A stretch of DNA of 64,000 bases, from assembly GCA_963747235.1 (NCBI GenBank), contig CAVVEU010000008.1, positions 544,001-608,000 on the forward strand. The letters are read 5' to 3'. Under the pieces are notes generated by a model. The model was given only the letters and a program-made list of their open reading frames with translations. It did not search any database and was not told the origin of the DNA. Every line of letters starts with the position of its first letter. Position 1 is the first letter of the stretch. This stretch comes from an uncultured Candidatus Rokubacteria bacterium (GTDB lineage: Bacteria > Methylomirabilota > Methylomirabilia > Rokubacteriales > CSP1-6). A program made the position numbers and the translations under genes. Shown here one piece after another: positions 27,423 through 46,646 of the stretch.

Positions 27423-27433
27423 TGGTCCGACCA
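27423..27433. promoter_or_regulatory. FadR/GntR-type operator upstream of the OOR-like operon
   Basis: TGGTCCGACCA palindrome overlapping a TATGGT -10-like hexamer. Confidence 0.7.
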
Positions 27434-27477
27434 GCCGACCAGCGGCTCACCGGACGCGCGTTTCGAGGAGGAAGGGC

Positions 27478-28683
27478 ATGGCTCACTTCACCTGCGAGGT
27501 CGTCTACCGCGGCATCTTCCAGAAGAACCTGGCGGCCAGAATATGCCGGGGGATCGTGCTCTCGGCACGCAAGGCCGGCCGGTGGGGGATCGCGTTCGGG
27601 CGCTACGGGGACAGCCCCCAGCGCAACGGGATCCCCGCCAAGGACTTCGCGATCGTCGCGGACACGCAGGAAGAGCTCGAGCAGAACATGGCCCGCTACG
27701 AGCCCAAGGAAGTGGACGTCACGATCTGCGTGGACGACACCCTGTCCAAGGGCGTGGAATCCTGGGCCTGGTACGGGCTCCAGCCGATCAACCGGCTGAC
27801 CGTCTCCGGCGGCACCGTGCTGATGACCTCGCTGCAGAACCCGGCCCAGCTCCTGAAGGACATCCACAAGAAGGACGCGCCATATAACCTGGCCCTCATC
27901 CGGGCCAAGGCCTCGTTCTCCGGGCTCTGGGTCTACAAGGAAGACCACACCGAGGCGCGGATCCTGGGCGCCCTGGCCCGGATCCAGCCCGAGTTCCTGT
28001 CGCTGGACGCGGTGTGCCAGGCCATCAAGGAGGCCGAGTGGGGCTCCGATCTCAAGGTGGCCTCGGCCCGCAAGGCCCACGAGCGCCTGGAGACCCAGCC
28101 GATCAAGATCACCGAGGGCAATGCGGAGACCCCGTTCTCCTTCGAGAAGCCGAAGTGGTGGGAGATGCGCGAGGGTGTGACCATCCCGGCCATCCCCATC
28201 GGCAAGCCGATGGAGGGGGGCAAGGGCTACGTGCCCGAGCGCAACCCGTACTTCAAGAAGTTCACCACCCGCACGATGCGGCCGGTGATCGACTTCGACA
28301 AGTGCGTGAAGTGCACCCTCTGCTGGATCCAGTGCCCCGACTCCTGCTTCGACGTCACCCCGGACGGCCTCTACGACGCCAACATGGAATCCTGCTGCGG
28401 CTGCGGCGTCTGCGAGGCGGTGTGCCCGGCCAAGGAATGCGTGACCATGGTGCGCGAGGACGCCTTCGAGGACAACGCGAGCCAGTGGGAGATGTGGCGT
28501 ACCGACAAGGCCACGTACACGACGTGGATGACCGACAAGATCCACAGCAAGGAGCACATCACCCGGTCCCACGGGTTCCGATTCCGCGGCCAGTACGAGG
28601 AAGAGATCAAGCAGGAGCTGGAGTCGGGCGGCATCGAGATCACTGCGGGCATTCCCGGCGAGAACGCCGACTCGAAGAAGTAG
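27478..28683 (+). CDS. 2-oxoacid:ferredoxin oxidoreductase fused gamma/delta subunit (oxalate oxidoreductase delta-like)
   Basis: Gamma-type N-terminus (FGRYGDSPQR) plus two ferredoxin motifs CVKCTLCWIQCP and CCGCGVCEAVCP; RBS GAGGAGG. Confidence 0.88.
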   Translation: MAHFTCEVVYRGIFQKNLAARICRGIVLSARKAGRWGIAFGRYGDSPQRNGIPAKDFAIVADTQEELEQNMARYEPKEVDVTICVDDTLSKGVESWAWYGLQPINRLTVSGGTVLMTSLQNPAQLLKDIHKKDAPYNLALIRAKASFSGLWVYKEDHTEARILGALARIQPEFLSLDAVCQAIKEAEWGSDLKVASARKAHERLETQPIKITEGNAETPFSFEKPKWWEMREGVTIPAIPIGKPMEGGKGYVPERNPYFKKFTTRTMRPVIDFDKCVKCTLCWIQCPDSCFDVTPDGLYDANMESCCGCGVCEAVCPAKECVTMVREDAFEDNASQWEMWRTDKATYTTWMTDKIHSKEHITRSHGFRFRGQYEEEIKQELESGGIEITAGIPGENADSKK

Positions 28684-28698
28684 GGGAGGACTGAGACC

Positions 28699-29927
28699 AT
28701 GGCCGTCGAGACCAAGCCCGCAGGAGCAGTCGCCGACCACAAGGAGATGCTGATCTCCGGCAGCGAGGCCTGCGCCGAGGCGCTGACCCTGGCCGATATC
28801 GACGTGGTGACCGCGTACCCGATCCGGCCCTACGACACCGTCATGCAGGCCATCGCCAAGAAGATCGCCAACGGCCACCTGGAGGCGGAATACATCGTCG
28901 CCGAGGGCGAGCACAGCCAGTTCGAGATCGTCAAGCACGCCTCCACGGTGGGGGCGCGCGTGTTCTGCGGCTCCTCCGGCGTCGGCTGGATGTACGCGAT
29001 GGAGTGCCTCGTCGTCACCCCGCCGCTGCGCGTGCCGATGGTCTGCATGGTCGGCAACCGGGCGCTCGACGATCCGGGCGCCTTCGGCGTCGAGCACAAC
29101 GACGCGCTGGTCGTCCGCGACCTGGGCTGGATGCTGATCTGGGTGGATACCGCCCAGGAGATGCTCGACACCACGCTGCTCGCCTACCGCATCGCGGAGG
29201 ACCGGCGCGTGTTCCTGCCCATCGCGATCTCCGCGGACGGCGCCTTCCTCACGCACTCCCAGACCATCTGTCAGGTGCCGAGCCGGGCCCTGGTGGACAA
29301 GTTCCTCCCGCGCTACGACCGGGGCGACCTGCAGCTACATCCGGACAACCCGATCACGGTGGCGCCCCAGGCCAACGAGGACTGGGTCATCGAGATCCGG
29401 CGCCAGAACGACGAGGCGATGAAGCGGGCCAGCACCGTGATCGAGGAGGCCTACGCGGACTTCCGCAAGATCATGGGCCGCGCGCCCGAGAACCCGTGGT
29501 TCGAGGAGTACATGACCGAGGACGCGGAGATCATCCTGGTCGGCATGGGGACGATCTCGCTGCCGATGAAGGTCGGCATTCGCAACATGCGGGCGCAGGG
29601 CAAGAAGGTCGGCCTGGTGCGGCCGCGGTGGTTCCGCCCGTTCCCGACCGACCGGCTGGTGAAGGCCCTCTCGAAGGCTTCGGCCATCGGCGTCATCGAC
29701 CGCGACTATTCCTTCGGCTCGCCCTTCAATTCGGGGGTGGTCGCCAACGAGATCCGTGCCGCCATGTACAATGCGGACAAGCGCCCGCCGCTGCTCAGCT
29801 TCATCTGCGGGCTCGGCGGCCGTGAGGTCACCCTGGAAGACGTCGCCAAGGCCGCGGACATGTGCTACGCGGCCGCGAAGGCCGGGAAGTCCGACCCCAA
29901 GACGCATTGGCTCGGCGTCGAGAGTAG
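28699..29927 (+). CDS. porA: 2-oxoacid:ferredoxin oxidoreductase alpha subunit, oxalate-oxidoreductase-like (stop displaced by an indel near 29920)
   Basis: YPIRP, EGEH, GSSGVG, NRALDDPGAFG, FRPFP, GLGGRE. Confidence 0.88.
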
Positions 29928-29931
29928 CGCT

Positions 29932-29964
29932 GCGAGCCGCAGCCGCAGGCGAGGCGAGCGAATA
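29932..29964 (+). repeat. 33-nt GA-mismatch hairpin repeat, copy A
   Basis: GCGAGCCGCAGCCGCAGGCGAGGCGAGCGAATA; 29/33 identical to 61490-61522. Confidence 0.75.
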
Positions 29965-29978
29965 CTAGGGAGACCTAC

Positions 29979-30989
29979 ATGGCTGACACCGCATTCACGA
30001 ACGCGACGCAGATCCTGGAGCCCTTCAAGGGCGTCAAGAAGGTCACGATCGAGGAGTACTTCACCTCCGGTCACCGCACCTGCCAGGGCTGCGAGTCGGC
30101 CCTCGTGATGAAGCTCATGGTCAAGGCCGCGGGCCCGCGCACGATCGTGCTCGGCTCGACCGGCTGCATGTACGTGGCCAACACCACGTACTACACGACC
30201 CCGTGGGTGGTGCCGTGGATGCACACCCAGCTCGGCTCGTCGGGCTCGGCCGCGCTCGGCACCGCGGCCGGACTCAAGGCCCTCATGAAGAAGGGGAAGA
30301 TGAAGTCGGAGCCCATCAACGTCATCGCCTTCTGCGGCGACGGCGGCGGCGCCGACATGGGGCTGGGCGCGATCTCGGCGACGCTGACCCACAAGGAGTA
30401 CAACTCGCTGATCCTGATGTACGACAACGAGTCGTACGCCAACACCGACATCCAGCTCTCGGGCTCCACGCCGTACGGCGCGAACACCACGTTCAGCCCG
30501 CCCGGCTCGGTCAAGCGCATCATCCACACCCGCTGGAAGAAGAACACCGCGGGCATGCTGGCGGCCGGGCACCCGGAGTGCCGGTACGTGGCCACGGTGG
30601 ACGCCTCCTACGCGGTCGAGATGATGAACAAGGTCCGGAAGGCGCTCACCATCGGCGGGCCGACCTTCATCCACTCGCTCGACCCGTGCCCGAAGGGCTG
30701 GGACTACGACCCGATGCTCTCCCACGAGCTCGGCGAGCTGGCCGTCGAGACCGGCGTCTTCCCGCTCTACGAGGTCGAGGACGGGGTGGTGCGGCACTAC
30801 GGCAAGACCAAGGCCATCGTGGAGGGCCGTCCCCGCAAGCCCGTCCGCGAGTACCTGCTCAAGCAGGGCCGCTTCGCCCACTTCACCGAGGAAGACCTCG
30901 ACTACTTCCAGTCCAAGGTGGACGAGATGTGGGACAAGTGGGAGATCCCGGGCGTGATCCCGTTCTGGAAGGAGCGCCCCGGCAACTAA
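29979..30989 (+). CDS. porB: 2-oxoacid:ferredoxin oxidoreductase beta (TPP-binding) subunit, oxalate-oxidoreductase-like
   Basis: GHRTCQGC, TGCMYVANT, GDGG, YDNESYANT, TPYGANTTF, PCPKGW. Confidence 0.9.
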   Translation: MADTAFTNATQILEPFKGVKKVTIEEYFTSGHRTCQGCESALVMKLMVKAAGPRTIVLGSTGCMYVANTTYYTTPWVVPWMHTQLGSSGSAALGTAAGLKALMKKGKMKSEPINVIAFCGDGGGADMGLGAISATLTHKEYNSLILMYDNESYANTDIQLSGSTPYGANTTFSPPGSVKRIIHTRWKKNTAGMLAAGHPECRYVATVDASYAVEMMNKVRKALTIGGPTFIHSLDPCPKGWDYDPMLSHELGELAVETGVFPLYEVEDGVVRHYGKTKAIVEGRPRKPVREYLLKQGRFAHFTEEDLDYFQSKVDEMWDKWEIPGVIPFWKERPGN

Positions 30990-31040
30990 CGCCCGCCGAA
31001 TCAAGCAGCGAACGGCCGGCCCCGACCTCGAGGAGGGGAC

Positions 31041-32054
31041 ATGACCCGTCAATGGCGACGTCTCGCGATGCTTGTTGCGGTTCTGGTTCTTGTCGCGGTG
31101 GTCGCGACTGCCCCCGGCCGCCCCGGCCTGGGAGCCGAGCAAGCCCATCGAGTTCGTGATCCCCGCCGGCCCCGGCGGGGGCGCGGACCAGATGGCGCGC
31201 CTCATCACGTTGCATCGTCCGAGAAGCACCGGCTTTCCCCGCAGCCGATCATCGCGGTGAACAAGTCGGGCGGCGCCGGCGCGGAAGGGTTCATCCACGT
31301 GAAGGGCAAGAAGGGCGATGCCCACACCGTGGTCATCACCCTCTCCAACCTCTTCACGACGCCGCTGCACACCGGGGTGCCCTTCAACTGGAAGGACCTG
31401 ACGCCGGTCGCTCGCATGGCGCTCGACCAGTTCATCCTGTGGGTGAATACGGATCGGCCGGACAAGATGAACTTCAAGAGCGCGAAGGAGTACATCGCGG
31501 TGGTGAAGGAGCACTCCGGCGGCGCAACCGGATGAAGATGGGCGGGACCGGCTCCGCCCAGGAAGACCAGATCCTCACCATTCAGCTCGAGCAGGCGCTC
31601 GGGGTCAAGTTCACGTACGTGCCCGTTCAAGGGGGGCGGCGAGGTCTGCACCAACCTGATGGGCAACCACGTGGACTCGACGGTCAACAACCCGATCGAG
31701 TGCGCCGGCCAATGGAAGGCGGCGCGGGTACGCCCGCTCGCGGTGTTCGACACCGCGCGCATCCCGGTTCCGGAGTGGAAGGACATTCCGACCGTGAAGG
31801 AGGCGCTCGGGGCCGACATCAGCTACCTGATGCTGCGCGGCATCTTCGGCCCGCCGGACATGCCCAGGGATGCGCTCGAGTGGTACCAGGCGCTGCTCAA
31901 GAAGGTCTACGAGACCCAGGAGTTCAAGGATTACCTGAACCAGGGGGCGCTCAAGCCCGCCTGGGAGACCGGCCCCGAGTTCGTGAAGTGGCTCGGTGAC
32001 GCGGAGCAGCTGCACCGGGACCTGATGACGAAGGGCGGCCTCCTCAAGAAGTAA
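31041..32054 (+). CDS. tctC: Tripartite tricarboxylate transporter substrate-binding protein (Bug/TctC; several frameshifts)
   Basis: WEPSKPIEFVIPAGPGGGADQMAR, NKSGGAGAEG, GGTGSAQED, IPTVKE. Confidence 0.85.
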
Positions 32055-32078
32055 CCGACCCGGTCCCCGGACCTGGAC

Positions 32079-32540
32079 ATGCGCACGGCCGACCTGACGA
32101 CGGCGCTGATCCTGATCGCGGGGGGCGCCCTCGTCATCTGGGACTCCCTGCGCCTCGGCATCGGCTGGGGGACCGACGGGCCCGAGAGCGGGTTCTTCCC
32201 GTTCTGGCTCGCGGTGCTGCTCATCGTCTCCTGCGCGGCCATCGCGCTGCAGGCCTGGCGCCGTACGAGCCGCGTCCCCTTCGTCACCCGTGAGCGGCTC
32301 ACGCCCGTCCTCACCACGCTGCTGCCCGCGACCGGGTTCGTGGTGCTGACCCAGTTCATCGGACTCTACGTGGCCACCACCGCCTTCATGGCCTTCTACA
32401 TGCGCTGGATCGGCCGCTATCCGTGGCTCGCGGTGGTGACGGTGAGCGTGCTGTTCCCGCTGGTGGTCTTCGTCGTCTTCGAGAAGTGGTTCCTCGTGCC
32501 GATGCCCAAGGGTCCGCTCGAAGCCTGGCTCGGGTACTGA
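32079..32540 (+). CDS. tctB: Tripartite tricarboxylate transporter small membrane subunit
   Basis: GPESGFFPF, four TM segments, FEKWFLVPMPKG. Confidence 0.88.
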   Translation: MRTADLTTALILIAGGALVIWDSLRLGIGWGTDGPESGFFPFWLAVLLIVSCAAIALQAWRRTSRVPFVTRERLTPVLTTLLPATGFVVLTQFIGLYVATTAFMAFYMRWIGRYPWLAVVTVSVLFPLVVFVVFEKWFLVPMPKGPLEAWLGY

Positions 32541-32542
32541 GC

Positions 32543-34068
32543 GTGGGATTCGAGAACCTGCTCCTGGGCTTCCAGGTCGCGCTGCAGCCCTACAACCTCG
32601 GGCTCGCCGTCCTCGGCATCACGCTCGGCACCGTCATCGGGGTGCTGCCCGGGCTCGGCGGGGCCAACGGCGTGGCCATCCTGCTCCCCCTCACGTTCTC
32701 GATGGCGCCGACCTCCGCGATCATCCTGCTCACGAGCCTCTACTGGGGCGCCCTCTTCGGCGGGGCCATCACCTCGATCCTCTTCAATATCCCGGGGGAG
32801 CCGTGGTCGGTGGCCACCACCTTCGACGGCTACCCGATGGCGCGGAACGGGCAGGGCGGGGAGGCGCTCACCGCCGCGTTCACGTCGTCGTTCGTGGGCG
32901 CGCTCTTCTCGGTCATCCTGATCACCCTGTTCGCTCCCCTCCTGGCCGAGATCGCGCTGAAGTTCGGGCCCCCCGAGTTCTTCGCGATCCAGCTCCTGAC
33001 GTTCTCGTCGTTCATCGGCCTGGGCGGCGGCAACCCGATCAAGTCGCTGGTGTCCATCCTGCGTGGGCTTCATCCTGGCCTCGGCGGGCCTCGACATCGT
33101 GACCGGCCAGCTCCGCCTGACCTTCGGGATCACCGAGCTGATGAAGGGCTTCGACTTCATCGTGGCCGTCATCGGCCTCTTCGGCGTCGGCGAGATCCTG
33201 CTCTCGGTGGAGGAGGGGCTGTCCTTCCGCGGGGTGAAGGCCGCCATGAACCCGCAGGTGGTCTGGCAGACGTGGAAGACGCTGCCGCGCTACTACCGCA
33301 CGTTCGTCCGCAGCGCCTTCATCGGCTTCTGGATGGGCTTCAAGCCGGGCGGCGCCACTCCCGCGTCCTTCATGAGCTACGCCTTCGCCAAGCGCTTCTC
33401 CCGGCACCCCGAGCGCTTCGGCAAGGGCGAGATCGAGGGCGTGGTGGCGCCGGAGACGGCGGCCCACGCGGCGGGAGGCGCCTCGCTCTTGCCCATGATC
33501 ACCCTCGGCATCCCGGGCAGCCCCACCGCGGCGGTGATGCTGGGCGGGCTCATCATCTGGGGCCTCCAGCCCGGGCCCGATGCTGTTCCGCGAGCGGCCC
33601 GACTTCGTCTGGGGCCTCATCGCGAGCATGTACACCGGCAACGTCATCGGGGTGCTGATGGTGCTGGCCTTCGTGCCGCTCTTCGCGGCCATCCTCCGCA
33701 TCCCGTTCCCGATCCTGACCCCGTTGATCATCGCGGTGTGCGCGGTGGGCTCCTACGCCGTCCACGACAGCATGATCGACATCTGGTATATGCTGCTGTT
33801 CGGTGTGATCGGTTATGTATTCAAGAAGCTCGACTACCCTCTCGCCCCGCTGGTCCTGGCCCTCGTGCTCGGGGATCTCGCCGAGAACGCCCTGCGCCAG
33901 AGCCTGATCATGTCGCAGGGCTCGCTCCTGATCCTGTTCACGCGGCCCATCGCCGGCGCCATCAGCGCGGTGGCCGTCTTCTTCTTCGCGCTGCCGCTGA
34001 TCGTGCCCTACTGGCGCCGCCTTCGCCGGGCGCAGGCCGAGGCGCCCGAGCCGGCCGCGCGACACTAG
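32543..34068 (+). CDS. tctA: Tripartite tricarboxylate transporter large membrane subunit (frameshifts near 33062 and 33575)
   Basis: IGVLPGLG, GGAITSILFNIPG, TTFDGYPM, APETA, TLGIPGS. Confidence 0.9.
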
Positions 34069-34089: not shown

Positions 34090-34786
34090 ATGAACCTGGA
34101 TTTCCTCCTCGGCATCGGCAAGATCGTGCTCATCGACCTGGCGCTCGCCGGGGACAATGCGCTGGTCATCGCCCTGGCCGTGCGCACCCTGTCCCCCCGC
34201 CAGCAGTTCCAGGGCCGGATCTGGGGCACCGTCGGCGCGGTGGGCCTGCGGCTCGGCTTCATCTTCATCGTGACCTACCTGCTCGCCGTCCCCCTGCTGC
34301 AGGTCGTGGGCGGGCTGCTGCTGGTGTGGATCGCCTTCAAGCTGGTGCTCCAGTCGGATGCGCACGAGGGTGAGACGGTGAAGCAGGGCACGACCCTCCT
34401 CGGCGCCATCTGGGTCATCCTCGTGGCCGACGTCATCATGAGTCTCGACAACGTGATCGGCGGTCGCCGCCGCCGCCGAGGGTGACATGCGCCTCGTGGT
34501 CTTCGGCATCGCGCTGTCCATCCCGATCGTGGTCTGGGGGTCCGGGGTGCTGGCCCGGCTGATGAACCGCTACCCGTGGATCATCCTGGTGGCGGGCGGC
34601 ATCCTGGGCGAGGTGGCGGGCAAGATGATGCTGCACGACCAGTTCATCATCAATCGGTTCGGCGACTCGCCCGACGCGGTGGAGTTCGCCCTGCGCATCG
34701 GTCTCGCGATCGCCATCATGCTGGTGGGCTGGCTCGTCACGCGCCGGCGGGCGGCGGTGGCGGACGACGGGGCGGCCGCCCGGTGA
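34090..34786 (+). CDS. TerC/YjbE-family membrane protein (frameshift near 34460)
   Basis: IDLALAGDNALVIALA, ADVIMSLDNV, FGIALSIP. Confidence 0.88.
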
Positions 34787-35586
34787 GCTCGGCCGGCGAG
34801 GGACCGAGTCTCGAGCCGGTCCGGTCCACCCGGATCTACGAGGAGATCGTTCGCCAGGTCAAGCAGCTCATCGGGGAGGGCCGGCTCAAGTCGGGTGATC
34901 GCCTCCCGCCCGAGCGCGACCTGGCCGAGAAGTTCATGGTCAGCCGCACCTCGGTGCGGGAAGCCCTCCGCGCGCTGCAGAGCCGCGGCCTCATCGAGAT
35001 CCGGGCCGGGGAGGGCGCCTTCATCCGGGACGTCTCGGTGGAGACGCTGATCGAGCCGCTGGCCCTGGTGATCCTGCCGCATCGCGAGGCGGTGGGCGAG
35101 CTCTTCGAGGCCCGCCGGCTGCTCGAGCCCGCGATCGCGGCCCTCGCGGCCCGGCGGGCCACGCGCGAGGAGATCCAGGAGATGGAGCGCATCCTGGAGG
35201 ACCAGGCCAAGGAGGTGGCGGCGGGCCGCACCGGGATGCTCCAGGACGGCGCGCTGCACACGGCCATCGCCAACAGCGCCCACAATCGCGCCATCACCCG
35301 CATCGTCAATGCCCTCATGGATCTGCTCACCCAGAGCCGCGAGGAGTCGCTGCACACGCCCGGACGGCCGACGCGGTCCCACGAGGACCACCGCCGCATC
35401 CTGGAAGCGGTGCGCCGGCGCGACGAGGTGGCCGCCCATCGCTCGATGCTGGACCACCTCATCGCGGTGGAGACGCTCGTGACCGGCGCCCACGCCGACG
35501 ATCGGAGCGCGACGCCCGCCGCGCGCAAGAGGAAGCCGCGCCCCTGCCCCGTCCGTAAGTGCCTGTCTTGCAACATTAATCGTTGA
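34783..35586 (+). CDS. FadR/GntR-family regulator (PdhR/LldR/GlcC-like)
   Basis: GDRLPPERDLAEKFMVSRTSVREAL HTH; FCD domain with EARRLLE, LHTAI..AHN, EDHRRI, MLDHL. Confidence 0.92.
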   Translation: MSSAGEGPSLEPVRSTRIYEEIVRQVKQLIGEGRLKSGDRLPPERDLAEKFMVSRTSVREALRALQSRGLIEIRAGEGAFIRDVSVETLIEPLALVILPHREAVGELFEARRLLEPAIAALAARRATREEIQEMERILEDQAKEVAAGRTGMLQDGALHTAIANSAHNRAITRIVNALMDLLTQSREESLHTPGRPTRSHEDHRRILEAVRRRDEVAAHRSMLDHLIAVETLVTGAHADDRSATPAARKRKPRPCPVRKCLSCNINR

Positions 35587-35611
35587 CATCCGGAGTCGAG
35601 CGCCCTACCAT
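35583..35611 (+). promoter_or_regulatory. sigma70 promoter for the ppdK-ilv operon
   Basis: TTGACA-17 nt-TACCAT. Confidence 0.75.
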
Positions 35612-35684
35612 GGCTGATTAACGCAGGCCCGCCGGTGGGCCTGTGTCTTTTTCTCTGCCACCGAATTGCTCAGGGGGTCCTGTG

Positions 35685-38435
35685 ATGGCGCAGGCCGGGA
35701 GTCGGAAACGCGCGCGACGCAGCGCCGCGCGTCCATCCAGCGCGACTCCCAAGTACGTCTACTCCTTCGCCGGCGGCAAGGCGGAAGGGTCGAGCGCGCT
35801 GCGCGACCTGCTCGGCGGCAAGGGCTGCGAGCTGGCCGAGATGACGAAGATGGGCGTGCCGGTGCCCCCCGGCTTCACGATCACGACCGAGGCGTGGGCC
35901 GCCTACGACGCGGCCGGCAAGAAGCACCCCACGGGGCTCTGGGCCCAGGTGATGGCGCACCTGGCCCGCCTCGAGGCCGCCGCGGGTAGCCGCCTCGGTG
36001 ATCCGGCGCGGCCGCTGCTGGTGTCGGTCCGGTCGGGGGCACGCGCCTCGATGCCCGGCATGATGGACACGGTTCTCAACCTGGGCCTCAACGACAGGTC
36101 GGTGGAGGGGCTCTCGGCGCGGACGCGCAACGAGCGCTTCGCGTGGGACTGCTACCGCCGCTTCATCACGCTCTTCGGCGACGTGGTGCTCGCCATCGAC
36201 CGCCACGCCTTCGACGCGCGGCTGGACGCCGCGAAGGCGCGCGCGGGGGCGACGACCGACGCGGATCTCCCGGCCGCCGCCCTGCGGGAGCTGGTCTCGG
36301 AGTTCAAGAAGGTCGTGCAGGACAGGACGGGCCGGCCCTTCCCGCAGGATCCCCACGAGCAGCTCCGGCTGGCGATCAACGCGGTCTTCGAGTCCTGGTG
36401 GGCCAAGAAGGCGGTGGACTACCGCCGCATCCACCGCCTGCCCGACGACTGGGGCACCGCGGTGACCGTGATGGCGATGGTCTTCGGCAATCTCGGGCCG
36501 ACCTCGGGCACCGGGGTGTGCTTCTCGCGCGATCCCTCGAGCGGCGAGCGCCGCTTCTTCGGCGAGTTCCTCGTCAACGCCCAGGGCGAGGACGTGGTGG
36601 CGGGCATCCGCACCCCGGAGCCGATCGACGCGCTCCAGCAGCGGATGCCGTCGGTGTACGCCAAGCTCACCGCGATCAAGGATCGGCTCGAGCGCCACTA
36701 CCGCGACATGCAGGACATCGAGTTCACGGTGCAGGAAGGCCGGCTCTATATACTACAAACCCGATCCGGCAAGCGCACCGGGGCCGCCGCGGTCCGCATC
36801 GCGGTGGAGATGGTCCGCGAGCGGCGCATCGACCGGAACACCGCCCTGCTGCGGGTGGAGCCGGCCTCGCTCCACCAGCTCCTCGTGAAGACGGTGGATC
36901 CCGCCGCGCGCTACACCGCGATCGCCAAGGGCCTGCCCGCGACCCCGGCGGCGGCGGTGGGCAAGGTCGTCTTCGATCCGGAGAAGGCGGTGGACATGGC
37001 CCTCCGGGAAGAGGCGGTCATCCTGGTGCGCGCCGAGACCTCGCCGGAAGACGTGGCGGGCATGCACTCGGCGCAGGGCGTCCTGACCTCGCGCGGCGGC
37101 CTCACCTCGCACGCGGCGGTGGTCGCCCGCGGCTGGGGCAAGTGCTGCGTGGTCGGCGCGGGGGACGTGGTGGTGGACGAGGAGAATCATCTCTTCCGGG
37201 CCGGCCGCGCGGTCGTGCGCGAGGGGCAGGTGATCACGCTGAACGGCGCCACCGGCGAGGTGATCGTGGGCGCCCAGCCGCTCGTGGACCCCAAGCTCTC
37301 CGACGAGTTCCGGGAGCTCCTCGGCTGGGCCCAGGCGCACGCCACCACCACGGTCCGCGCCAACGCGGACACGCCCGCGGACGCGGTCAAGGCCCGCGAG
37401 TTCGGCGCGGTGGGCATCGGCCTGGTGCGCACCGAGCACATGTTCTTCGGGGACGAGCGCATCCCGATCGTGCGCGAGATGATCATGGCGCGCGACGTCC
37501 AGGCCCGGAAGAAGGCGGTCGACCAGCTCCTGCCGTTCCAGCGGGAAGATTTCATCGGCATCTTCCGGGTGATGGCGCCCTACCCGGTGACGATCCGGCT
37601 GCTGGACCCGCCGCTGCACGAGTTCCTCCCGAAGTACAAGGAGGTGCTCGAGGAGTACACGCGGCTCGACGCGCGCGGCTTCAACCCGGAGCGCCACGCC
37701 GAGCTGGGCGCGATCAAGGCCCGCCTGGAGATGCTGCTCGAGGCGAACCCGATGCTGGGCCACCGCGGCTGCCGGCTCGGGATCACGTTCCCCGAGATCT
37801 ACGACATGCAGGTGCGGGCCATCATGGAAGCGGCGTGCGCGGTGGCGGCGGAAGGTGTGGCGGTCGAGCCCGAGATCATGATCCCGCTCACCGGCACGGT
37901 GGCGGAGATGAAGCTGACGCGGGAGATGACGGACCGCGTGGCGAAGCAGGTGCTCGCGGAGACGGGGCGGAAGGTCGCCTACTCGGTCGGCACCATGATC
38001 GAGGTGCCGCGCGCCGCGCTGATCGCGGACCGGATCGCGGAGTTCGCCGAGTTCTTCTCGTTCGGCACCAACGACCTGACCCAGATGACGTTCGGGTACA
38101 GCCGGGACGACATCGGCAAGTTCCTGCCCTACTACCTCGAGAAGAAGCTGCTGCCCAACGACCCGTTCGCGGTGCTCGACCAGGATGGGGTGGGGGAGCT
38201 GGTGCGGGTCGGCATCGAGCGGGGCCGCCGGGCCGTCCCCAAGCTGAAGGTGGGCATCTGCGGCGAGCACGGCGGCGAGCCCTCGTCGGTGGAGTTCTGC
38301 CACCGCGTCGGGATGACCTACGTCTCGTGCTCCCCGTACATGGTGCCGGTGGCGTGGCTCGCGGCCGCCCAGGCCGAGATCAAAGATCCACACCGGAAGC
38401 AGAAGCAAACAGCGAAAAGGAGAAACACGCGGTGA
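35685..38435 (+). CDS. ppdK: Pyruvate, phosphate dikinase
   Basis: [72 protein letters not shown]. Confidence 0.96.
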
Positions 38436-40186
38436 AGCTTTCAGGCGCCCGGATCGTGCTCGAGTGCATCAAGCGGGAAGGCGTGGATCTCATCTTCGGT
38501 CTGCCGGGCGGCGCGGTCCTGCCGATCTACGACGCCCTGTACGACTTCGAGGGCCTGCGCCACGTCCTGGTACGCCAGGAGGCCGCCGCCGGGCACGCGG
38601 CGGAAGGGTACGCGCGGACGTCCGGCAAGGTCGGCGTCTGCCTCGTCACCTCCGGGCCGGCCGCGACCAACCTGGTCACCGCGCTCCAGGACGCGCTGAT
38701 GGACTCGATCCCGATCGTGGCCTTCACCGGGCAGGTGCCCACCACCTCGATCGGCAACGACGCGTTCCAGGAGGCCGACAACGTCGGCATCACCCGCTCG
38801 GCCACCAAGCACAACTTCCTGGTGAAGGACGGCAAGGATCTGGCTCCGATCATCAAGGAGGCGTTTCACATCGCCTCCACCGGACGCCCGGGGCCGGTCC
38901 ACGTGGACCTGCCCAAGGACATCCTGGTCAAGGAGTGGACCTTCGAGTACCCCGAGCGCGTGCACCTGCGCTCGTACAACCCGACGTACGAGGGCCATCC
39001 CGGGCAGATCAAGAAGGCGGCCCGCTCGATGGTGCGGGCCAAGCGGCCGGTGCTCTACGTGGGCGGCGGCGCGATCTCCTCGGACGCCTCGCCCGAGCTG
39101 CGCGAGCTGGCGGACCTGACCCAGATCCCGCTCACCCAGACCCTCATGGGCCTGGGCGCGTTCCCGATGGCCGATCCGCTGTCGCTCGACATGCTCGGCA
39201 TGCACGGCACCTACTACGCCAACATGGCGGTGCACCACTCGGACTGCCTGGTGGCGGTGGGCGCGCGCTTCGACGACCGGGTGACCGGGCGCGTGGACGC
39301 GTTCTCGCCGAACGCGGAGATCATCCACATCGACATCGATCCGTCGTCGATCTCGAAGAACATCAAGGTGGACATCCCGATCGTGGGCGACTGCAAGCGC
39401 GTGCTGCGCCGCCTGGTGGAGGCGGTGCGCGAGGAGCTGAAGGACGGGGTCCCCGCCGCGGTGACCGAAGGCCGCCGGCAGTGGGCCGCGCAGATCGCGG
39501 ACTGGAAGCGGGACTTCCCGCTGCGCTACGACTGGGACGACGACGTGATCAAGCCCCAGTACGTCATCCAGGAGCTGTCGAACCTGACCCAGGGCGAGGC
39601 CTACGTGGTCACCGGGGTGGGCCAGCACCAGATGTGGGCCGCCCAGTACTACCGCTTCAAGCACCCGCGGCGCTGGTGCACCTCGGGCGGCCTCGGCACC
39701 ATGGGCTACGGGCTGCCCACCGCGATGGGGGTGCAGGCCGCGCACCCGGGCAAGCTCGTGGTCAACATCGACGGGGACGGCTCCTTCGCGATGAACAGCC
39801 AGGAGCTCGCCACCTGCTTCACCGAGAACCTTCCGGTCAAGACCGTCATCATCAACAACAGCGGCCACGGCATGGTCCGGCAGTGGCAGCGCATCATCTA
39901 CAAGGAGCGCTTCTTCGCCATCGACCTGCCGGGCATCCCGGACTGGGTCAAGCTCGCGGAGGCGTACGGCTGCGTGGGCCTGCGCGTCACCAAGCCGAGC
40001 GAGGTGGTGCCCGCGCTCGAGAAGATGCTGAGCACGCCCGCGCCGGTGGTCCTGGACGTCTGCGTGGACAAGGACGAGTGCGTGTTCCCGATGGTGCCGG
40101 CGGGCGGGGCCAACAAGGACATGATCCTGTCGCTGCCGACCCGCGAGGCGGCGGAAAAAGCCGCCAAGTCCCAGACCGGATTCTAG
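38432..40186 (+). CDS. ilvB: Acetolactate synthase large subunit
   Basis: [44 protein letters not shown]; GTGA overlap with ppdK. Confidence 0.95.
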
Positions 40187-40195
40187 GAGCACGAC

Positions 40196-40780
40196 GTGGC
40201 CGACACGAACAAGCATACGATCGCGGTGCTGGTGGAGAACAAGTTCGGGGTGCTGTCTCGCGTCGCGGGGCTGTTCTCCGCGCGGGGGTACAACATCGAG
40301 AGCCTGTCGGTCGGGGAGACCCTCGATCCGTCGGTCTCGCGCATGACGCTGGTGGTGCGCGGGGAGCCGTTCATCATCGAGCAGGTCATCAAGCAGCTGC
40401 ACAAGCTGATCGACGTCATCAAGGTCACCGACCTCAGCGAGGAGAACCACGTGGAGCGCGAGATGCTCCTGCTGAAGGTCAACGCGGAGCCGGCGAATCG
40501 CGCCGAGATCCTCCGCCTGGGCGACATCTTCCGGGCCAAGGTGGTGGACGTGACGCCCACCGCCTACACGCTGGAGATCACCGGCGAGGAGTCCAAGATC
40601 GAGGGCATCATCGATCTCCTGCGGCCCTTCGGCATCCAGGAGATCGTCCGCACCGGCAAGGTGGCCATCGCGCGAGGCCCCAAGACCCGGCTGCGCAAGG
40701 TGGAGGAGCGGCTCGGCAAGTCCCGCGAGACCCCCCGTCCGCCGACCGACGATCCGAAGGTGGTCGGGTTCGCGGACTGA
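40196..40780 (+). CDS. ilvN: Acetolactate synthase small subunit
   Basis: [31 protein letters not shown]. Confidence 0.95.
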
Positions 40781-40819
40781 TTTCCAACGAAGGAAACCGA
40801 AAGAAAGGCACGAGGAACC

Positions 40820-41824
40820 ATGCCGGCCAAGATCTTCTACGACCAGGACGCTGACCTGGGCCTGCTGCGCGGCAAGACCGTCGCCATCATCGGCTACGGC
40901 AGCCAGGGGCACGCCCACGCCTTGAACCTGAAGGACTCCGGCCAGACCGTGGTGGTCGGCCTCTACAAGGGCTCGAAGAGCTGGGCCCGGGCCGAGAAGG
41001 ACGGGCTCAAGGTCACCACGGTGAACGACGCGGCCGCCGCGGGCGACATCGTCATGATCCTGCTGCCCGACCAGACCCAGCGGCAGGTCTTCGAGGAGTC
41101 CATCAAGGGCGTGATGACCCGAGGCAAGATGCTGATGTTCGCCCACGGCTTCAACATCCACTTCAACCAGGTGGTGCCGCCCGCCGACGTGGACGTCTCG
41201 ATGATCGCCCCCAAGGCGCCCGGGCACGTGATGCGCGACCTCTTCACCCAGGGCCCGGGCGTGCCGGCGCTGGTCGCGGTCTACCAGGACGTCTCGGGCA
41301 AGGCCCGCGACCTGGCCCTGGCCTACGGTCGGGGCGTCGGCTGCACCCGCGCCGGCGTGATCGAGACCACGTTCAAGGAAGAGACCGAGACCGACCTCTT
41401 CGGCGAGCAGACCACCCTCTGCGGCGGCGTGTCGCACCTGATCAAGGCCGCCTACGAGACGCTCGTCGAGGCGGGCTACCAGCCCGAGGTCGCCTACTTC
41501 GAGTGCATGCACGAGATGAAGCTGATCGTGGATCTCTTCTACCAGGGCGGCCTCGCCTACATGCGGTACTCGGTGTCCGACACCGCGGAGTACGGCGACT
41601 ACACGCGCGGGCCGCGGATCATCGACGACCGGACCAAGCTGGAGATGAAGAAGATCCTCTCCGAGATCCAGTCCGGCCAGTTCGCGCGCGAGTGGGTGCT
41701 GGAGAACCAGGCCCACCGCGCGGGATTCCTCGCCATGCGGAAGCGGGACGCCGAACATCCGATCGAGGAAGTGGGCGGCCGGCTGCGCAAGATGATGGCG
41801 TGGATCAAGCCGCCGCGGGAGTGA
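40820..41824 (+). CDS. ilvC: Ketol-acid reductoisomerase
   Basis: [39 protein letters not shown]. Confidence 0.96.
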
Positions 41825-41852
41825 CCGAGCCCGCGGCACCGCGGGGAATCGC

Positions 41853-42479
41853 GTGCGCGTTCCGGTAGCCGCGGAAGGCTGGCCGTTCATCCTGCCCCCC
41901 GCGGCCGCCGCATGCATCATGGCCGCGATGGGCTGGGCGATCGCGGCGGCGGTGTTCGCCGTGGTGGCGCTGGCCTTCCTCGGCTTCTTCCGGGATCCGG
42001 ACCGGACGGCGCCCGAGCTGCCCGGGGCGGTGCTGGCGCCCGCCGACGGGCGCGTGATGGTGATCACCGAGGCGGTGGACCCGTGGGTCGGCCCGGCGGT
42101 GCGGGTGTCCATCTTCCTGTCGCCGCTGGACGTGCACGTCAACCGCGCGCCGATCGGCGGACTGGTGAAGAACGTGGAGTACGTGGCGGGCAGCTTCCTC
42201 GCGGCCTACCGGCCGGAGGCGTCGGAGCAGAACGAGCGATGCGCGATGAGCCTCGACGGTGACCGGGCCCGCGTGACGGTGACGCAGATCTCGGGCGTCC
42301 TGGCGCGCCGCATCGTCTGCCGGGTGCGGCCGGGCGAGACGCTGCGGGCCGGCGAGCGGTACGGGCTGATCCGCTTCGGATCGCGGACGGATCTGGTGCT
42401 GCCGCGGGGCACGGAGCTGCGGGTGCGGGTGGGGGATCGAGTGCGGGGCGGGGAATCGGTGATGGGGGTGCTGCGATGA
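41853..42479 (+). CDS. psd: Phosphatidylserine decarboxylase proenzyme
   Basis: [33 protein letters not shown]. Confidence 0.92.
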
Positions 42480-43334
42480 GACGGAGACACGCGAGCGACG
42501 CGGGCCGCGGGCCGCGCCGGAGGAAGTGGCAGGAGCTGCGCCAGCAGCCGCGGCGCGGGATCTTCCTGCTCCCGAGCCTGCTGACCACCGGCAACCTGTT
42601 CTGCGGGTTCCTGGCCCTGGTCCTGGCCTCGCAGCAGCGCTACACGGACGCGGCGATCTCCATCTTCGTCGGCATGCTCCTGGACATGCTGGACGGCAAG
42701 GTGGCGCGGATGACCAAGACCACGAGCCAGTTCGGGGTCGAGCTCGACTCGCTCGCCGACGTGGTGTCCTTCGGGGTCGCGCCCGCCTTCGTCCTCTACT
42801 CGATGGCGCTGGCCCCGCTGGGCCGCGCGGCCTGGCTCGGGCGCGTTTCTCTTCGTGATCTGCGGCGCCCTCCGCCTCGCGCGCTTCAACGTCTACGCGG
42901 GGGTGACCGACAAGCGCTACTTCGTCGGGCTGCCGATTCCCGCCGCCGCCGGCGTGGTGGCCTCGACGGTCCTGCTGCTGGGCACCGACGACATCCCGCG
43001 CTGGCTGGGGGCCGCGATCGCGGCCGGGACCTACCTGGTGGCGATCCTGATGGTGACCACGTTCCGGTACTACAGCTTCAAGGAGATCGATTTCGCCCGT
43101 CGCCGGCCCGCCGGGGTGCTGGTGCTGGTCGTCCTCGGCGTGCTGATCGTCGCCACGCATCCCCAGTGGTTCCTGTTCCTGCTCTTCTTCGCCTACGCCC
43201 TGAGCGGCCCGACGCGCCCGCTCTGGGCGCGGCGTCGCGACGCGGTCCCCGCGGCGGCTCCCGCCGGCTCACCGCCCGCGCTGCCCGCGGAGCGGGAGCC
43301 GAGGGATACGACCGAGCGGGACCGGAGGATCTGA
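42476..43334 (+). CDS. pssA: CDP-diacylglycerol-serine O-phosphatidyltransferase (frameshift near 42842)
   Basis: DMLDGKVAR...[33 protein letters not shown]. Confidence 0.92.
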
Positions 43335-43336
43335 CC

Positions 43337-44431
43337 ATGGCGACGTACAAGATCGCGGTGCTGCCCGGGGATGGGATCGGGCAAGAGGTGACGCCGCAGG
43401 CGCAGCGGATCCTCCAGCTCGTCGGCCGGGCCGCCGGCATCGGGTTCGAGTTCGAGACCGGGCTGGTGGGCGGCTCCGCCATCGACGCGGCGGGGACCCC
43501 GCTGCCGCCCGCGACCCTGGCGCTCTGCCAGCAGGCCCACGCCATCCTCTTCGGGGCGGTGGGCGGTCCCAAGTGGGACACCCTGCCGCAGGAGCAGCGT
43601 CCCGAGCGCGGGCTGCTCGGCATCCGCAAGGAGCTCGATCTCTTCGCCAACCTGCGCCCGGCCACCTGCTTCCCCATGCTGGTGGACGCCTCGCCGCTCA
43701 AGCGGTCGGTGGTCGAGGGCACCGACATCATGGTGATCCGCGAGCTGACCGGCGGGCTCTACTTCGGCGAGCCGCGCGGGCGCGAGGAGTTCGCGGACGG
43801 GAGCGCGCGCGCCGTCAACACCATGGCCTATACCTCGCGCGAGATCGAGCGGGTGGCCCGCGCCGCGTTCGACGTGGCGATGAAGCGCAAGAAGCGGCTG
43901 GCCTCGGTGGACAAGGCCAACGTGCTGGTGGTCTCGCAGCTCTGGCGGGAAGTGGTGACGCGGGTGGGGAAGGACTATCCCCAGGTGCAGCTCGAGCACG
44001 TGCTGGTGGACAACTGCGCGATGGCGCTGGTCCACAAGCCCACCCACTTCGACACGATCGTGACCGAGAACACCTTCGGCGACATCCTCTCGGACGAGGC
44101 GGCCATCCTCGCCGGGTCCATGGGCATGCTGCCGTCGGCCAGCCTCGGCGGCAAGGGCGGTCGCATGGGGCTCTTCGAGCCCGTCCACGGCACCGCGCCG
44201 GACATCGCGGGCCAGGGCGTGGCCAACCCGATCGCGGCGATCCTGTCCGCCTCCATGCTGCTGCGCTACTCGCTCGAGCGGGGCGCCGACGCGGATCGGG
44301 TGGACGCGGCGGTCCTGCGTGTGCTGGAGCGGGGCCATCGGACCCGGGACATCCACTCGGCCGGCACCAAGCTGGTGGGCACGGCGGAGATGGGCGACTT
44401 GATCGCGGCCGAAGTCGAGAAGTCGTACTGA
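43337..44431 (+). CDS. leuB: 3-isopropylmalate dehydrogenase
   Basis: [53 protein letters not shown]. Confidence 0.96.
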
Positions 44432-44462
44432 AATAACCAAGATAGACAGGAGACGCTGAGCA

Positions 44463-45466
44463 ATGGCTTCAGGCGTGGTGGTGGCGGTGGTGGGGGCGAC
44501 GGGCGCGGTGGGGCAGACCACGCTGAAGATCCTCGAGGAGCGCAAGTTCCCGGTCCGCGAGCTGCGGGTCTACGCGTCCGCGCGCTCGGCGGGAAGACCG
44601 TCACCTTCAAGGGCGAGCCGGTGCGGGTCGAGGAAGTCGGGCCCGGCGCCTTCAAGGGCGTGGACATCGCGCTCTTCTCGGCGGGCTCCGCCCAGTCCAA
44701 GGAGTACGCGCCCCAGGCGGTGAAGGCCGGCGCGGTCGTGGTGGACAAGTCGAGCGCGTTCCGGATGGACCCGCAGGTGCCGCTGGTGGTGCCGGAGATC
44801 AATGCCCACGCGGTGCGCGGGCACCGAGGCATCGTGGCGTGCCCGAATTGCACCAGCATCGTCACCGTGATGCCGCTCAAGCCGCTCCACGACGCGGGTC
44901 GGCTCCGCCGGGTGATCGCGACCAGCTTCCAGGCGGTCTCGGGGGCCGGGGTCAACGGGGTGGACGAGCTGCGCACCCAGACGCTCGCGTGGGCCCGGGG
45001 CGAGGCGATCACCCCGAAGTTCTTCCAGCACCAGATCGCGTTCAACGTCATTCCTCACATCGACAAGTTCGGGGCCGACGGCTACACCGGCGAGGAGATG
45101 AAGCTGGTCCACGAGGTCCGCAAGATCCTCGAGCTGCCCGACCTGCCGATCTCGCCCACCACGGTGCGCGTGCCGGTCTTCACTGCCCACTCGGTGGCGG
45201 TGAACGCGGAGACCGAGGTCAAGATCGGCCGCGAGCGGGCGCGCGAGGTCTTCGCCGGGTTCCCGGGGCTCAAGCTCTGGGACGAGCCCGCCGAGAATCG
45301 GTACCCGATGCCGGTCGTGGTGGAAGGCCAGGACGACTGCTACGTTGGGCGCGTCCGCGAGGACCTGACCGTGCCGAACGGGCTCAACTTCTGGGTAGTC
45401 GGCGATCAGCTCCGGAAGGGCGCGGCCCTGAACGGCATCCAGATCGCGGAGCTCTTGATCCGCTGA
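44463..45466 (+). CDS. asd: Aspartate-semialdehyde dehydrogenase (frameshift near 44592)
   Basis: VVGATGAVG, PNCTS, QAVSGAG, RVPVFTAHS, DQLRKGAALN. Confidence 0.94.
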
Positions 45467-46242
45467 CCACACGCACCGTCCGGCTCACGCTCGCCTACGA
45501 GGGCACGGAGCTGCACGGCTGGCAGGTGCAGCCGGAGCTCGCGACGGTGCAGGGCCTCCTGATGGCGGCCGCGGCCCGGGTGCTGGGCGGGCCCGTGAAG
45601 ATCACCGGGGCGAGTCGCACCGACGCGGGCGTGCATGCGCTCCGACAGGTCGCCAGCCTCGCCACGTCCGCCGCGGTCACCCCCGCGGCGCTGCACCGCG
45701 CGCTGAATGCCCTGCTGCCGCCGTCGGTGCGCGTGCTCGACGTGCGCGAGGCGCCGGCCGGCTTCGACGCGCGCCGCTGGGCCCGCGGCAAGCGTTACGC
45801 CTACCTGATCGATCGCGGTCCGCAGGCCGATCCGTTCCTGCGGCGCCACGCCTGGCACGCGCCGTTCCCGCTCGACGAGCACGCGATGGCGGCCGGGCTG
45901 GCGCTCCTGCGGGGCAAGCACGACTTCAGCGCCTTCTGCGCGGCGGCCGGCCGGGATCGCACGCCGACCTGCACGATCATGTCCGCCCGGGTGGTGGCCC
46001 GGCGCGAGCGCCTGGCGATCTGCCTCTCCGCCGACAGCTTCCTGCATCACATGGTCCGCAACATCGTGGGGAGCCTGGTCGAGGTCGGGCGGGGCGCGCG
46101 GCCGCCGGGGTGGATCGCAGAGGTCGTGGACGGCCGGGACCGGAAGCGGGCCGGGCCCACCGCACCCGCCCAGGGGCTGGTCCTGGTCCGGGTCCTGTAC
46201 GGGCCGGAGGCGCGGCCCGGCGCCGCGGAAGATACCCCGTGA
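45463..46242 (+). CDS. truA: tRNA pseudouridine(38-40) synthase (apparent CTG start overlapping the asd stop)
   Basis: AYEGTELHGWQ, ASRTDAGVHA, GKHDFSAF, FLHHMVRNIVG, TAPAQGL. Confidence 0.92.
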   Translation: MTTRTVRLTLAYEGTELHGWQVQPELATVQGLLMAAAARVLGGPVKITGASRTDAGVHALRQVASLATSAAVTPAALHRALNALLPPSVRVLDVREAPAGFDARRWARGKRYAYLIDRGPQADPFLRRHAWHAPFPLDEHAMAAGLALLRGKHDFSAFCAAAGRDRTPTCTIMSARVVARRERLAICLSADSFLHHMVRNIVGSLVEVGRGARPPGWIAEVVDGRDRKRAGPTAPAQGLVLVRVLYGPEARPGAAEDTP

Positions 46243-46589
46243 CGCCCGACGATCTCCCGGAAGGCGGCCCACCGCCGGCGGAGGACGGGAAGGAGCGAAG
46301 CCGCGGCAAGGGCTTCAAGGCCCGGAAGCGTGAGGACCACGCCCTCGTGCTGATCCGGGACCTCCTGGCCTGCCTGGAGAATCCGGCGCAGGCCCGGCGC
46401 CTGCTGCTGGAGCTGAGCCGCTACTACGATCCGATCCTGGGGGGCGCCATCGTGGAGGTCCGCCACCAGCGGGAGATCATGGAGGCGATCGAGGCGGGGC
46501 GGCCGGGGGAAGCCGAGGCGCTGGTGCAGGCCCGCTATGCCCTCTATATCAAGGATCGGGCCCACCTGGGCCGCGGCGAGGAGGGCTGA
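46239..46589 (+). CDS. Hypothetical protein
   Basis: GTGA overlap with truA; helical ORF with coding-like codon usage. Confidence 0.6.
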   Translation: MTPDDLPEGGPPPAEDGKERSRGKGFKARKREDHALVLIRDLLACLENPAQARRLLLELSRYYDPILGGAIVEVRHQREIMEAIEAGRPGEAEALVQARYALYIKDRAHLGRGEEG

Positions 46590-46616
46590 GGCCCGCCCGG
46601 GCCGCCCATGATTGCC

Positions 46617-46646
46617 TTGACACTGGTCTGACCACCTGCCTAGAAT
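46617..46646 (+). promoter_or_regulatory. sigma70 promoter of the fdh operon with a FadR-type operator in the spacer
   Basis: TTGACA-18 nt-TAGAAT; TGGTCTGACCA at 46624-46634. Confidence 0.75.

Follow-up and report, generated by a model that had tools for sequence, protein, structure and literature searches.

A FadR-type palindrome shared by the promoters of an oxalate oxidoreductase-like operon and a formate dehydrogenase operon points to a small predicted regulon in uncultured Rokubacteria

Introduction

A 64,000-nucleotide stretch of DNA from an uncultured Candidatus Rokubacteria bacterium (source genome G000, contig C8, positions 544001–608000; referred to here as the window) carries the same 11-bp palindrome, TGGTCNGACCA, at the promoters of two separate operons. 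The first operon encodes a 2-oxoacid:ferredoxin oxidoreductase (OFOR) that resembles oxalate oxidoreductase (OOR), a tripartite tricarboxylate transporter (TTT), a TerC-family membrane protein and a regulator of the FadR subfamily of GntR proteins, and the second encodes a selenocysteine-containing formate dehydrogenase (FDH) of the FDH-N type. Comparison with related genomes indicates that an ordinary repressor of the FadR/LldR type probably controls both operons and at least two unrelated genes. The palindromes are best explained as operators of the regulator encoded at 34783–35586, which would repress transcription and be released by a carboxylate, and a probability of about 0.7 is assigned to this explanation. 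Its components are not equally firm: the sites are very probably functional and the regulator is likely to bind them, repression is a probable but slightly less secure element, and oxalate is a doubtful candidate for the effector.

Rokubacteria, which are abundant in soil, have never been grown in culture, so that their gene regulation can be read only from sequence. The source genome comprises 5.57 Mb in 42 contigs with a G+C content of ~70% and is 88% complete, and the gene order of the window was read from Pfam and NCBIfam profile scans (Table 1). A literature search, in which supplements were not covered, found no published description of this regulon.

Predicted operator sites in the window and in the genome

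Within the window TGGTCNGACCA has exactly two matches (0.05 expected; none of 100 shuffles gave two or more), one at 27423–27433 (TGGTCCGACCA) ahead of the OFOR genes and the other at 46624–46634 (TGGTCTGACCA) in the fdh promoter, the two positions named in a sequence-only reading of this DNA made before the present analysis. The whole genome contains five sites of this pattern compared with six of a reversed control pattern, and as the 11-mer is thus not enriched genome-wide, the case for it rests on position and conservation, the OFOR and fdh copies both being kept in relatives.

The copy upstream of the OFOR genes is the more widely conserved. It was found in all 19 loci that include the gene start and upstream DNA among 40 relatives of the same taxonomic order, and these loci span three families. 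A wider scan took the best 80 of 547 confirmed loci (75–98% identical in subunit 1), 79 of which include the gene start, and sought the best match within 250 nt upstream; of the palindromes in these Rokubacteria/Methylomirabilota loci 57 are exact, 21 deviate at one position and one deviates at two, within flanks that are otherwise divergent. The 79 loci overlap the set of relatives and are kin, hence the counts do not represent independent events. A frequency matrix built from 69 distinct OFOR-upstream sites reads T-GGTC-n-GACCA followed by three bases (mostly GCC) and a nearly invariant GACCA, that is, a composite of three half-sites. When the genome was scanned with this matrix the OFOR site scored 33.5, a site at C8:644671 on the minus strand (upstream of korA) 19.9 and the fdh site 19.4, the next best score being 14.9.

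The likely promoter of the OOR-like operon has a weak −10 element in this genome. In relatives the TTGACA hexamer recurs and better −10 elements (CATAGT, TAGGGT, TATTCT) occupy the corresponding position, 1–2 nt ahead of the palindrome; because the −10 of the relatives stands directly before it, the OFOR palindrome likely covers the region of the transcription start and not, as the sequence-only reading had it, a −10-like box. A TATGGT box considered earlier as the −10 element was discarded, as it would require a 23-nt spacer.

At the fdh operon the palindrome lies inside the spacer between the −35 and −10 elements, where it had been placed before. The site stands beside the −35 element in 12 of 12 loci of the same genus with upstream DNA (nine exact, three with one mismatch), while the neighbouring spacer bases change between loci (cctgcc, gcgccc, gtccc and aaaacc among them) and the leader varies between 73 and 135 nt. 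Outside the genus it is present in none of 17 loci, which comprise genome G024 and 16 more distant homologues; in G024, the closest orthologue outside the genus (91% identical), TTGACA and TACAAT are kept and the site is gone. Given 12 of 12 loci inside the genus versus 0 of 17 outside, the tie of fdh to this operator is, on comparative evidence, a recent recruitment in one genus and not part of a conserved pathway.

The catalytic subunit of this FDH scores 1124.6 bits with TIGR01553 (cut-off 814.2) when the in-frame TGA is read as selenocysteine, and has a twin-arginine translocation (TAT) signal (TAT_signal, 25 bits) and molybdopterin domains. Its membrane partner is of the NrfD type, and the remainder of the operon matches the Fer4_11, NrfD and FdhD-NarQ profiles together with an FdhE-like C-terminal domain. 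A small open reading frame (ORF) of ~116 aa (46239–46589) lies directly upstream of the fdh promoter and adjoins fdh even in distant Rokubacteria that have no operator there (33–43% identity). It matches no Pfam family, BLASTP finds no similarity between it and the regulator, and a weak atlas lead (score 0.90) connects it with short FCD-domain proteins.

Two further promoters carry the motif. An exact site at C20:127642 (minus strand) reads TTGACAgg-TGGTCGGACCA-tcag-TAGGGT and precedes a gene for a glycine-rich RNA-binding protein of 113 aa with an RRM domain. A GGTnnnACC element is found next to the −35 in 16 of 18 loci of the genus (four exact, six with one mismatch and six with two) and in none of 12 loci outside it. 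The site at C8:644671 reads TGGTC-tgg-CGGTCCGACCG, an inverted copy of the composite operator, and lies ~150–170 nt upstream of the alpha gene of a two-subunit 2-oxoacid:acceptor oxidoreductase of the KorAB type (TIGR03710, 649 bits), by reading just before a conserved putative TTGCTT...TAGCAT promoter. This composite site was detected in 15 of 16 loci of the genus and in the single locus of a sister genus, and is absent from the other 12 loci with a gene start (one further genus of the same family and 11 loci of other families).

The leader of the RRM gene (~130 nt; C20:127178–127660) is itself highly conserved in the genus, and in other families a different leader occurs with a conserved CCCTCAAAGAG...CTCTTTGGGGG hairpin. 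This conservation may reflect post-transcriptional control.

Further matches lie outside these promoters. Allowing up to one mismatch gives 68 sites genome-wide, of which 11 are left after a crude non-coding filter that itself missed the OFOR site; the sites preceding an amide/urea-type ABC transporter (C13) and close to groES (C24) were judged unconvincing. The exact site at C29:248186 is inside a coding region and probably due to chance. Another exact TGGTCCGACCA (C24:555091–555101) overlaps the ATG start codon of a minus-strand gene for a DedA/VTT-domain membrane protein. A partial site proposed before the CGNR gene (GTCTGACCAG, 26746–26755) is present in the sequence but kept in none of the loci of eight relatives, and was treated as chance.

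The GntR/FCD regulator

The protein encoded at 34783–35586 has the domains expected of the FadR subfamily, to which it had been assigned: a GntR winged helix-turn-helix (wHTH) domain (PF00392, 75.7 bits, cut-off 27; residues 88–150 of the long ORF) and a C-terminal, all-helical FCD effector domain (PF07729, 93.3 bits, cut-off 24.3). Its top NCBIfam models are NanR (150.7 bits, cut-off 260), LldR (124.9, cut-off 311), PdhR (108.1, cut-off 330), UxuR and GlcC (95.4, cut-off 301), and since every best model scores below its cut-off, the regulator is by these profiles an unnamed member of the carboxylate-sensing branch. The gene is firmly linked to the OFOR genes, as it occurs downstream and on the same strand in all 46 loci that reach at least 9 kb past the start of the alpha gene. 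TctA is present in 45 of these and ppdK follows the regulator in 42, and one locus lacks all Tct genes and keeps the OFOR and the regulator.

Residues R45, R55, R59 and G76 of the regulator are the equivalents of R35, R45, R49 and G66 of FadR, as deduced from the +10 offset of a HMMER match to 1hw1_A (query 29–184, chain 19–174; no gaps assumed), and these four FadR residues are reported to be indispensable for DNA binding (PMC2602784). The published sites likewise agree with TGGTCnGACCA as an operator core of the subfamily: the FadR consensus is given as TGGTN3ACCA and the highest-affinity site of Corynebacterium glutamicum LldR as TGGTCTGACCA (PMC2602784), and the Escherichia coli LldR box as AAnTGGTCnGACCAnTT (PMC10272880). 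An operator of this type (TGGTN3ACCA) is present at or after the promoter in the system described here. Taken with the conserved sites and the invariable linkage of the regulator gene, the four contact residues lend good support to the earlier suggestion of one repressor with a shared operator, and on these grounds we infer that the binding protein is the regulator of the operon.

Only three FCD-domain matches were found in the genome. The paralogue on C30 neighbours a peptide-type ABC transporter and lacks an upstream GGTnnnACC palindrome; the copy on C40 seems to carry a frameshift in the present assembly.

The regulator gene overlaps at its end with a promoter-like TTGACA-17-TACCAT (35583–35646, the interval that also holds the hairpin and T run listed in Table 1), just before ppdK.

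The OOR-like enzyme, the transporter and their possible substrate

The description of the OFOR as OOR-like, also part of the sequence-only reading, stands with some restrictions. Residues 1–260 of subunit 1 match no Pfam family. An AF2 model of this subunit (mean confidence, pLDDT, 76.8; from 30 sequences) has as its best fold match the OOR delta chain 5c4i_E (E 9e-21, TM-score 0.70–0.75 on the target, ~340 columns), and the gamma chains of pyruvate:ferredoxin oxidoreductases (PFOR) cover only the first domain of the model. The best PDB matches of the alpha and beta subunits are 5c4i_A (1.3e-92) and 5c4i_C (2.9e-88), compared with e-62 and e-59 for an archaeal PFOR. The three-chain plan (domains III–V fused, I–II and VI), with subunit 1 as modelled, is that of OOR. 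The OOR models of NCBIfam score below their cut-offs for alpha (361.2, cut-off 500), beta (NF045792, 347.3, cut-off 590) and delta (81.5, cut-off 230), yet each is the top model. The OOR homology of alpha ends near 29920, and the final part of its ORF, which runs into the beta gene, is probably the artefact of an indel.

In OOR, Arg31 and Asp116 of alpha are reported to drive the plug-loop mechanism; the YPIRP motif that contains Arg31 is described as unique to OOR, Thr occurring in other OFORs, and Arg109 as shared with other OFORs (PMC5020499). YPIRP is found in 74 of 74 relatives, and Arg109 is kept in the alignment to 5c4i_A. The position of Asp116 is occupied by Ala, and the plug loop NRALDDPGAFGVEH (LDDPGAF, versus LDPPGDF in OOR) recurs in 74 of 74 relatives. 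By sequence the enzyme is therefore OOR-like, with oxalate as a candidate substrate: the YPIRP motif and the fused III–V chain speak for the assignment, and the scores below the equivalog cut-offs and the replacement of Asp116 against it.

TctC, TctB and TctA are all encoded together. Among PDB structures, the closest relatives of TctC are either uncharacterised or binders of unrelated acids.

The proposed link from oxalate to formate is not borne out. OOR is reported to yield two CO2 and no formate, without CoA (PMC5020499), and because it makes CO2 and not formate, the FDH is by analogy not a downstream step of the OOR-like enzyme. Of the proposed C2/C1-acid regulon, the shared site at the OOR-like/Tct and fdh operons was retained, but the regulon is wider than C1 and C2 acids, because the RRM and KorAB promoters carry the motif as well, and the fdh link is limited to one genus.

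In the genome, which is 88% complete, no oxalyl-CoA decarboxylase (Oxc) or formyl-CoA transferase (Frc) exceeds its cut-off; the top Frc-like protein reaches 483.5 bits (cut-off 504.2) among 58 matches to the Frc model. A locus at C29:139391–142239 encodes a thiamine pyrophosphate (TPP) enzyme split between two frames (Oxc model, 126.7 and 230.7 bits) and, directly after it, a family-III CoA-transferase (Frc model, 424.7 bits), an oxc/frc-like pair that is also below cut-off. On account of this pair and of the near-threshold Frc-like genes, the Frc/Oxc route cannot be called missing.

Proposed mechanism and alternative explanations

In the proposed mechanism a dimer of the regulator would contact TGGTCnGACCA with its winged helix-turn-helix. 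The third half-site present at its own operon, GACCA, 3 nt further on, would probably recruit a further subunit or dimer, and binding just after the −10 element would block initiation, making the operon autoregulated, an arrangement that would apply throughout the sampled Rokubacteria. In the genus the palindrome would have been added inside the −35/−10 spacer of the promoters of the selenocysteine FDH-N and the RRM gene, where it would block RNA polymerase, and in the family the composite form would act from just upstream of the putative KorAB-type promoter. A small carboxylate on the FCD domain would release the repressor, and the candidate effectors are oxalate and other 2-oxo or dicarboxylic acids brought in by the TTT system.

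Several observations weigh against this mechanism or against the extent claimed for it. Besides the lack of genome-wide enrichment, the genomes of the genus are close kin, and conservation among them is partly shared ancestry. A consensus promoter scan called no promoter in 26600–27600 and neither the korA nor the RRM promoter, so that operator placement at these three targets depends on reading and conservation. At korA the site is placed ahead of the −35 element, a position compatible with either activation or repression. A third half-site is missing at fdh and the RRM gene, and the RRM sites often read TGGTAGGACCA or CGGT...ACCG, so a second regulator could read them. Three genomes that have the fdh site (G004, G009 and G017; 80–86% complete) gave no regulator match at E<=1e-25, the OFOR gene likewise going undetected in G009.

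Some of these points could be accommodated by two regulators, the FadR-type protein of the operon reading only the composite sites at OFOR and korA, and another GntR-family or unrelated protein reading those at fdh and the RRM gene, in which case the OOR-like operon and fdh would not be co-controlled. The distribution of the third half-site, nearly invariant at OFOR, present at korA and lacking at the other two, is what such a division would give, as are the three genomes with an fdh site and no detected regulator orthologue. However, the 11-bp core is identical to that at OFOR, single palindromes are reported to be bound by LldR and FadR (PMC2602784, PMC10272880), few candidates for the second protein exist among the FCD regulators of the genome (of the three, one has no palindrome upstream and another seems to be frameshifted), and the genomes without the regulator are incomplete, two of them having the OFOR operon cut at contig ends; two regulators are accordingly considered improbable. 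A further possibility is that the fdh palindrome has no function, having arisen by chance in the spacer and been kept through recent common ancestry. The genus is indeed closely related (the FDH N-terminus is 90–96% identical) and the 11-mer is not enriched, but over the 10 specified bases only three changes in all are seen in the 12 loci, in which the adjoining spacer and the leader vary, and this core is found again in two other conserved promoter settings (RRM and korA), which makes a functionless site very improbable.

A different objection accepts the shared operator and concerns the signal: the regulator may be a PdhR-like sensor of a central 2-oxoacid (pyruvate, 2-oxoglutarate) that tunes the OOR-like enzyme, KorAB and FDH-N, the enzyme itself not acting on oxalate. 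The composite operator at a second OFOR, the KorAB type, would suit this role, as would the position of ppdK after the regulator gene in most loci, the presence of PdhR among the best NCBIfam models, and the low OOR scores of all three subunits together with Ala in place of Asp116 in all 74 relatives. YPIRP, described as unique to OOR (PMC5020499), is nevertheless found in every one of those relatives, OOR is the best match of every one of the three chains by sequence and by fold, a large PFOR-type gene exists separately on C42, and the terminator-like hairpin appears to separate ppdK from the operon; a PdhR-like sensor is thus a tentative possibility, on a par with oxalate as the effector. 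Slightly less probable than either, and speculative, is the fuller proposal that the regulator senses oxalate or a related small dicarboxylate and switches on CoA-independent TTT import and OOR-like oxidation, one genus having rewired it to KorAB, the periplasmic selenocysteine FDH-N and the RRM gene. The preferred explanation remains the operon's own regulator binding at the four promoters and acting as a carboxylate-released repressor at OFOR, fdh and the RRM gene; from the position of these three sites we infer the sign of its action.

Features of the window

The coordinates of the genes and sites are collected in Table 1. The OOR-like operon and the fdh operon are separated by ~11 kb of housekeeping genes.

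Table 1. Genes, promoters and predicted operator sites in the window (numbering of the 64,000-nucleotide stretch).
Feature	Position	Strand	Evidence or remark
MOSC-domain gene	26013–26660	−	Pfam/NCBIfam
CGNR/ABATE regulator gene	26762–27379		Pfam/NCBIfam
Likely promoter of the OOR-like operon	27392–27421	+	TTGACA 27392–27397, 18-nt spacer, weak −10 CAAGGT 27416–27421
Predicted composite operator TGGTCCGACCA-GCC-GACCA	27423–27441	+	11-bp palindrome and third half-site 3 nt on, just after the −10
Three OFOR genes	27478–30989	+	Pfam/NCBIfam
OFOR subunit 1 (401 aa)	27478–28683	+	Domain III-like N-terminal part fused to 2x[4Fe-4S] ferredoxin domain (V); Fer4 at residues 270–324
OFOR alpha (domains I–II)	28699–30108	+	POR_N 182 bits, PFOR_II 102 bits
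OFOR beta (TPP-binding domain VI)	29979–30989	+	TPP_enzyme_C
tctC, tctB, tctA	31041–34068	+	Pfam/NCBIfam
tctC (TTT periplasmic binding protein)	31041–32054	+	Split over frames; TctC 27.6 bits on one fragment
tctB	32079–32540	+	TctB 71.6 bits
tctA	32540–34068	+	Three frames, two 1-nt indels near 33063 and 33579; TctA profile 1–159, 156–331, 331–423
TerC-family membrane protein	34090–34786	+	Two frames, indels near 34192 and 34461; TerC profile 2–119, 130–177
FadR-subfamily GntR regulator	34783–35586	+	wHTH and FCD domains; proposed operator binder
Terminator-like hairpin with T run	35621–35646	+	After the regulator gene; probable operon end
ppdK, ilvBNC, psd, pssA, leuB, asd, truA	35643–46242		Pfam/NCBIfam
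fdh promoter TTGACA-18-TAGAAT	46617–46646	+	Consensus scan, 11/12 matches
Predicted operator palindrome TGGTCTGACCA	46624–46634	+	In −35/−10 spacer; exact pattern match and genus conservation
Selenocysteine FDH-N-type alpha with TAT signal	46697–49807	+	In-frame TGA 47273–47275; TIGR01553
Rest of fdh operon	49810–52229	+	4Fe-4S subunit to 50589, NrfD-type from 50582, FdhD 51480–52229; boundaries approximate

The genes tctC, tctA and terC are each broken by 1-nt indels in this assembly. In the close relative G013 all three are intact and the OFOR alpha gene is split instead, tctC being intact also in G029 and G038 (360–366 aa) and the tctA of G013 encoding 506 aa; in more distant relatives all genes of the operon are unbroken. 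Because the same genes are intact in relatives and G013 is split elsewhere, the frame breaks read as assembly errors and not as pseudogenes, and the scattered single-base indels of both assemblies look like errors rather than gene decay.

Between the divergent MOSC and CGNR/ABATE genes an inverted repeat, TAACCTCTTT-N8-AAAGAGGTTA, occurs at 26683–26710. It is kept in eight relatives with paired changes on both arms (e.g., TAACCTGTCT...ACACAGGTTA), and is probably recognised as an operator by the CGNR regulator or some other factor.

Significance

The analysis provides a well-supported predicted regulator–operator pair with four target promoters that is directly testable in vitro. It marks the OOR-like/TTT operon as one that would be controlled by a ligand, and identification of the ligand of the regulator would be a cheap route to the substrate of the enzyme. 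The OOR-like enzyme may represent an overlooked route of oxalate turnover in soil and, if oxalate sensing holds true, surveys based on frc and oxc would miss this route. The gain of the operator at fdh and the RRM gene in a single genus suggests a local autoregulator growing into a small regulon. If the oxalate-sensing proposal with its rewiring holds, the uncultured phylum would have its first reconstructed transcriptional network, one that also illustrates how operators are recruited within a short evolutionary span.

Comparison with known systems

LldR of C. glutamicum and E. coli shares with the present system the operator core, a site that overlaps or follows the promoter, the wHTH and FCD plan and, as the second-best NCBIfam model of the regulator, a measurable similarity; its effector is a carboxylate. 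The regulator is nonetheless far below the LldR cut-off and hence not an LldR equivalog, its predicted targets are an OOR-like OFOR, a TTT transporter, an FDH-N, KorAB and an RRM protein whereas that of LldR is lldPD, and its own operator has a third half-site.

The E. coli PdhR protein is a pyruvate-sensing repressor of the FadR subfamily, encoded in pdhR-aceEF-lpd, with an operator core of the GGTnnnACC type and a regulon that reaches respiratory enzymes. As in that system, the regulator described here shares an operon with a 2-oxoacid-oxidising enzyme and is presumably autoregulated. It differs in scoring below the PdhR cut-off, in being encoded by the last and not the first gene of the operon, and in its partner, which is a ferredoxin-type OFOR in place of the pyruvate dehydrogenase complex.

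With E. coli FadR the regulator has in common the TGGTN3ACCA consensus (PMC2602784) and the four conserved DNA-contact residues. The overall similarity is weak (43.4 bits, cut-off 189). The C-terminal domain of E. coli FadR is of a different, acyl-CoA-binding type, whereas the regulator has an FCD domain of the LldR/NanR kind.

The OOR of Moorella thermoacetica (5C4I, 5EXD, 5EXE) is the best sequence match of the alpha and beta subunits and the best fold match of the III–V chain, and shares YPIRP and Arg109 with the enzyme of Rokubacteria. The latter, an enzyme predicted from its genes, departs from it in subunit scores below the equivalog cut-offs, in the change of Asp116 to Ala, in the first 260 aa of subunit 1, which are unrecognisable by sequence, and in its coupling to a TTT importer in a soil lineage.

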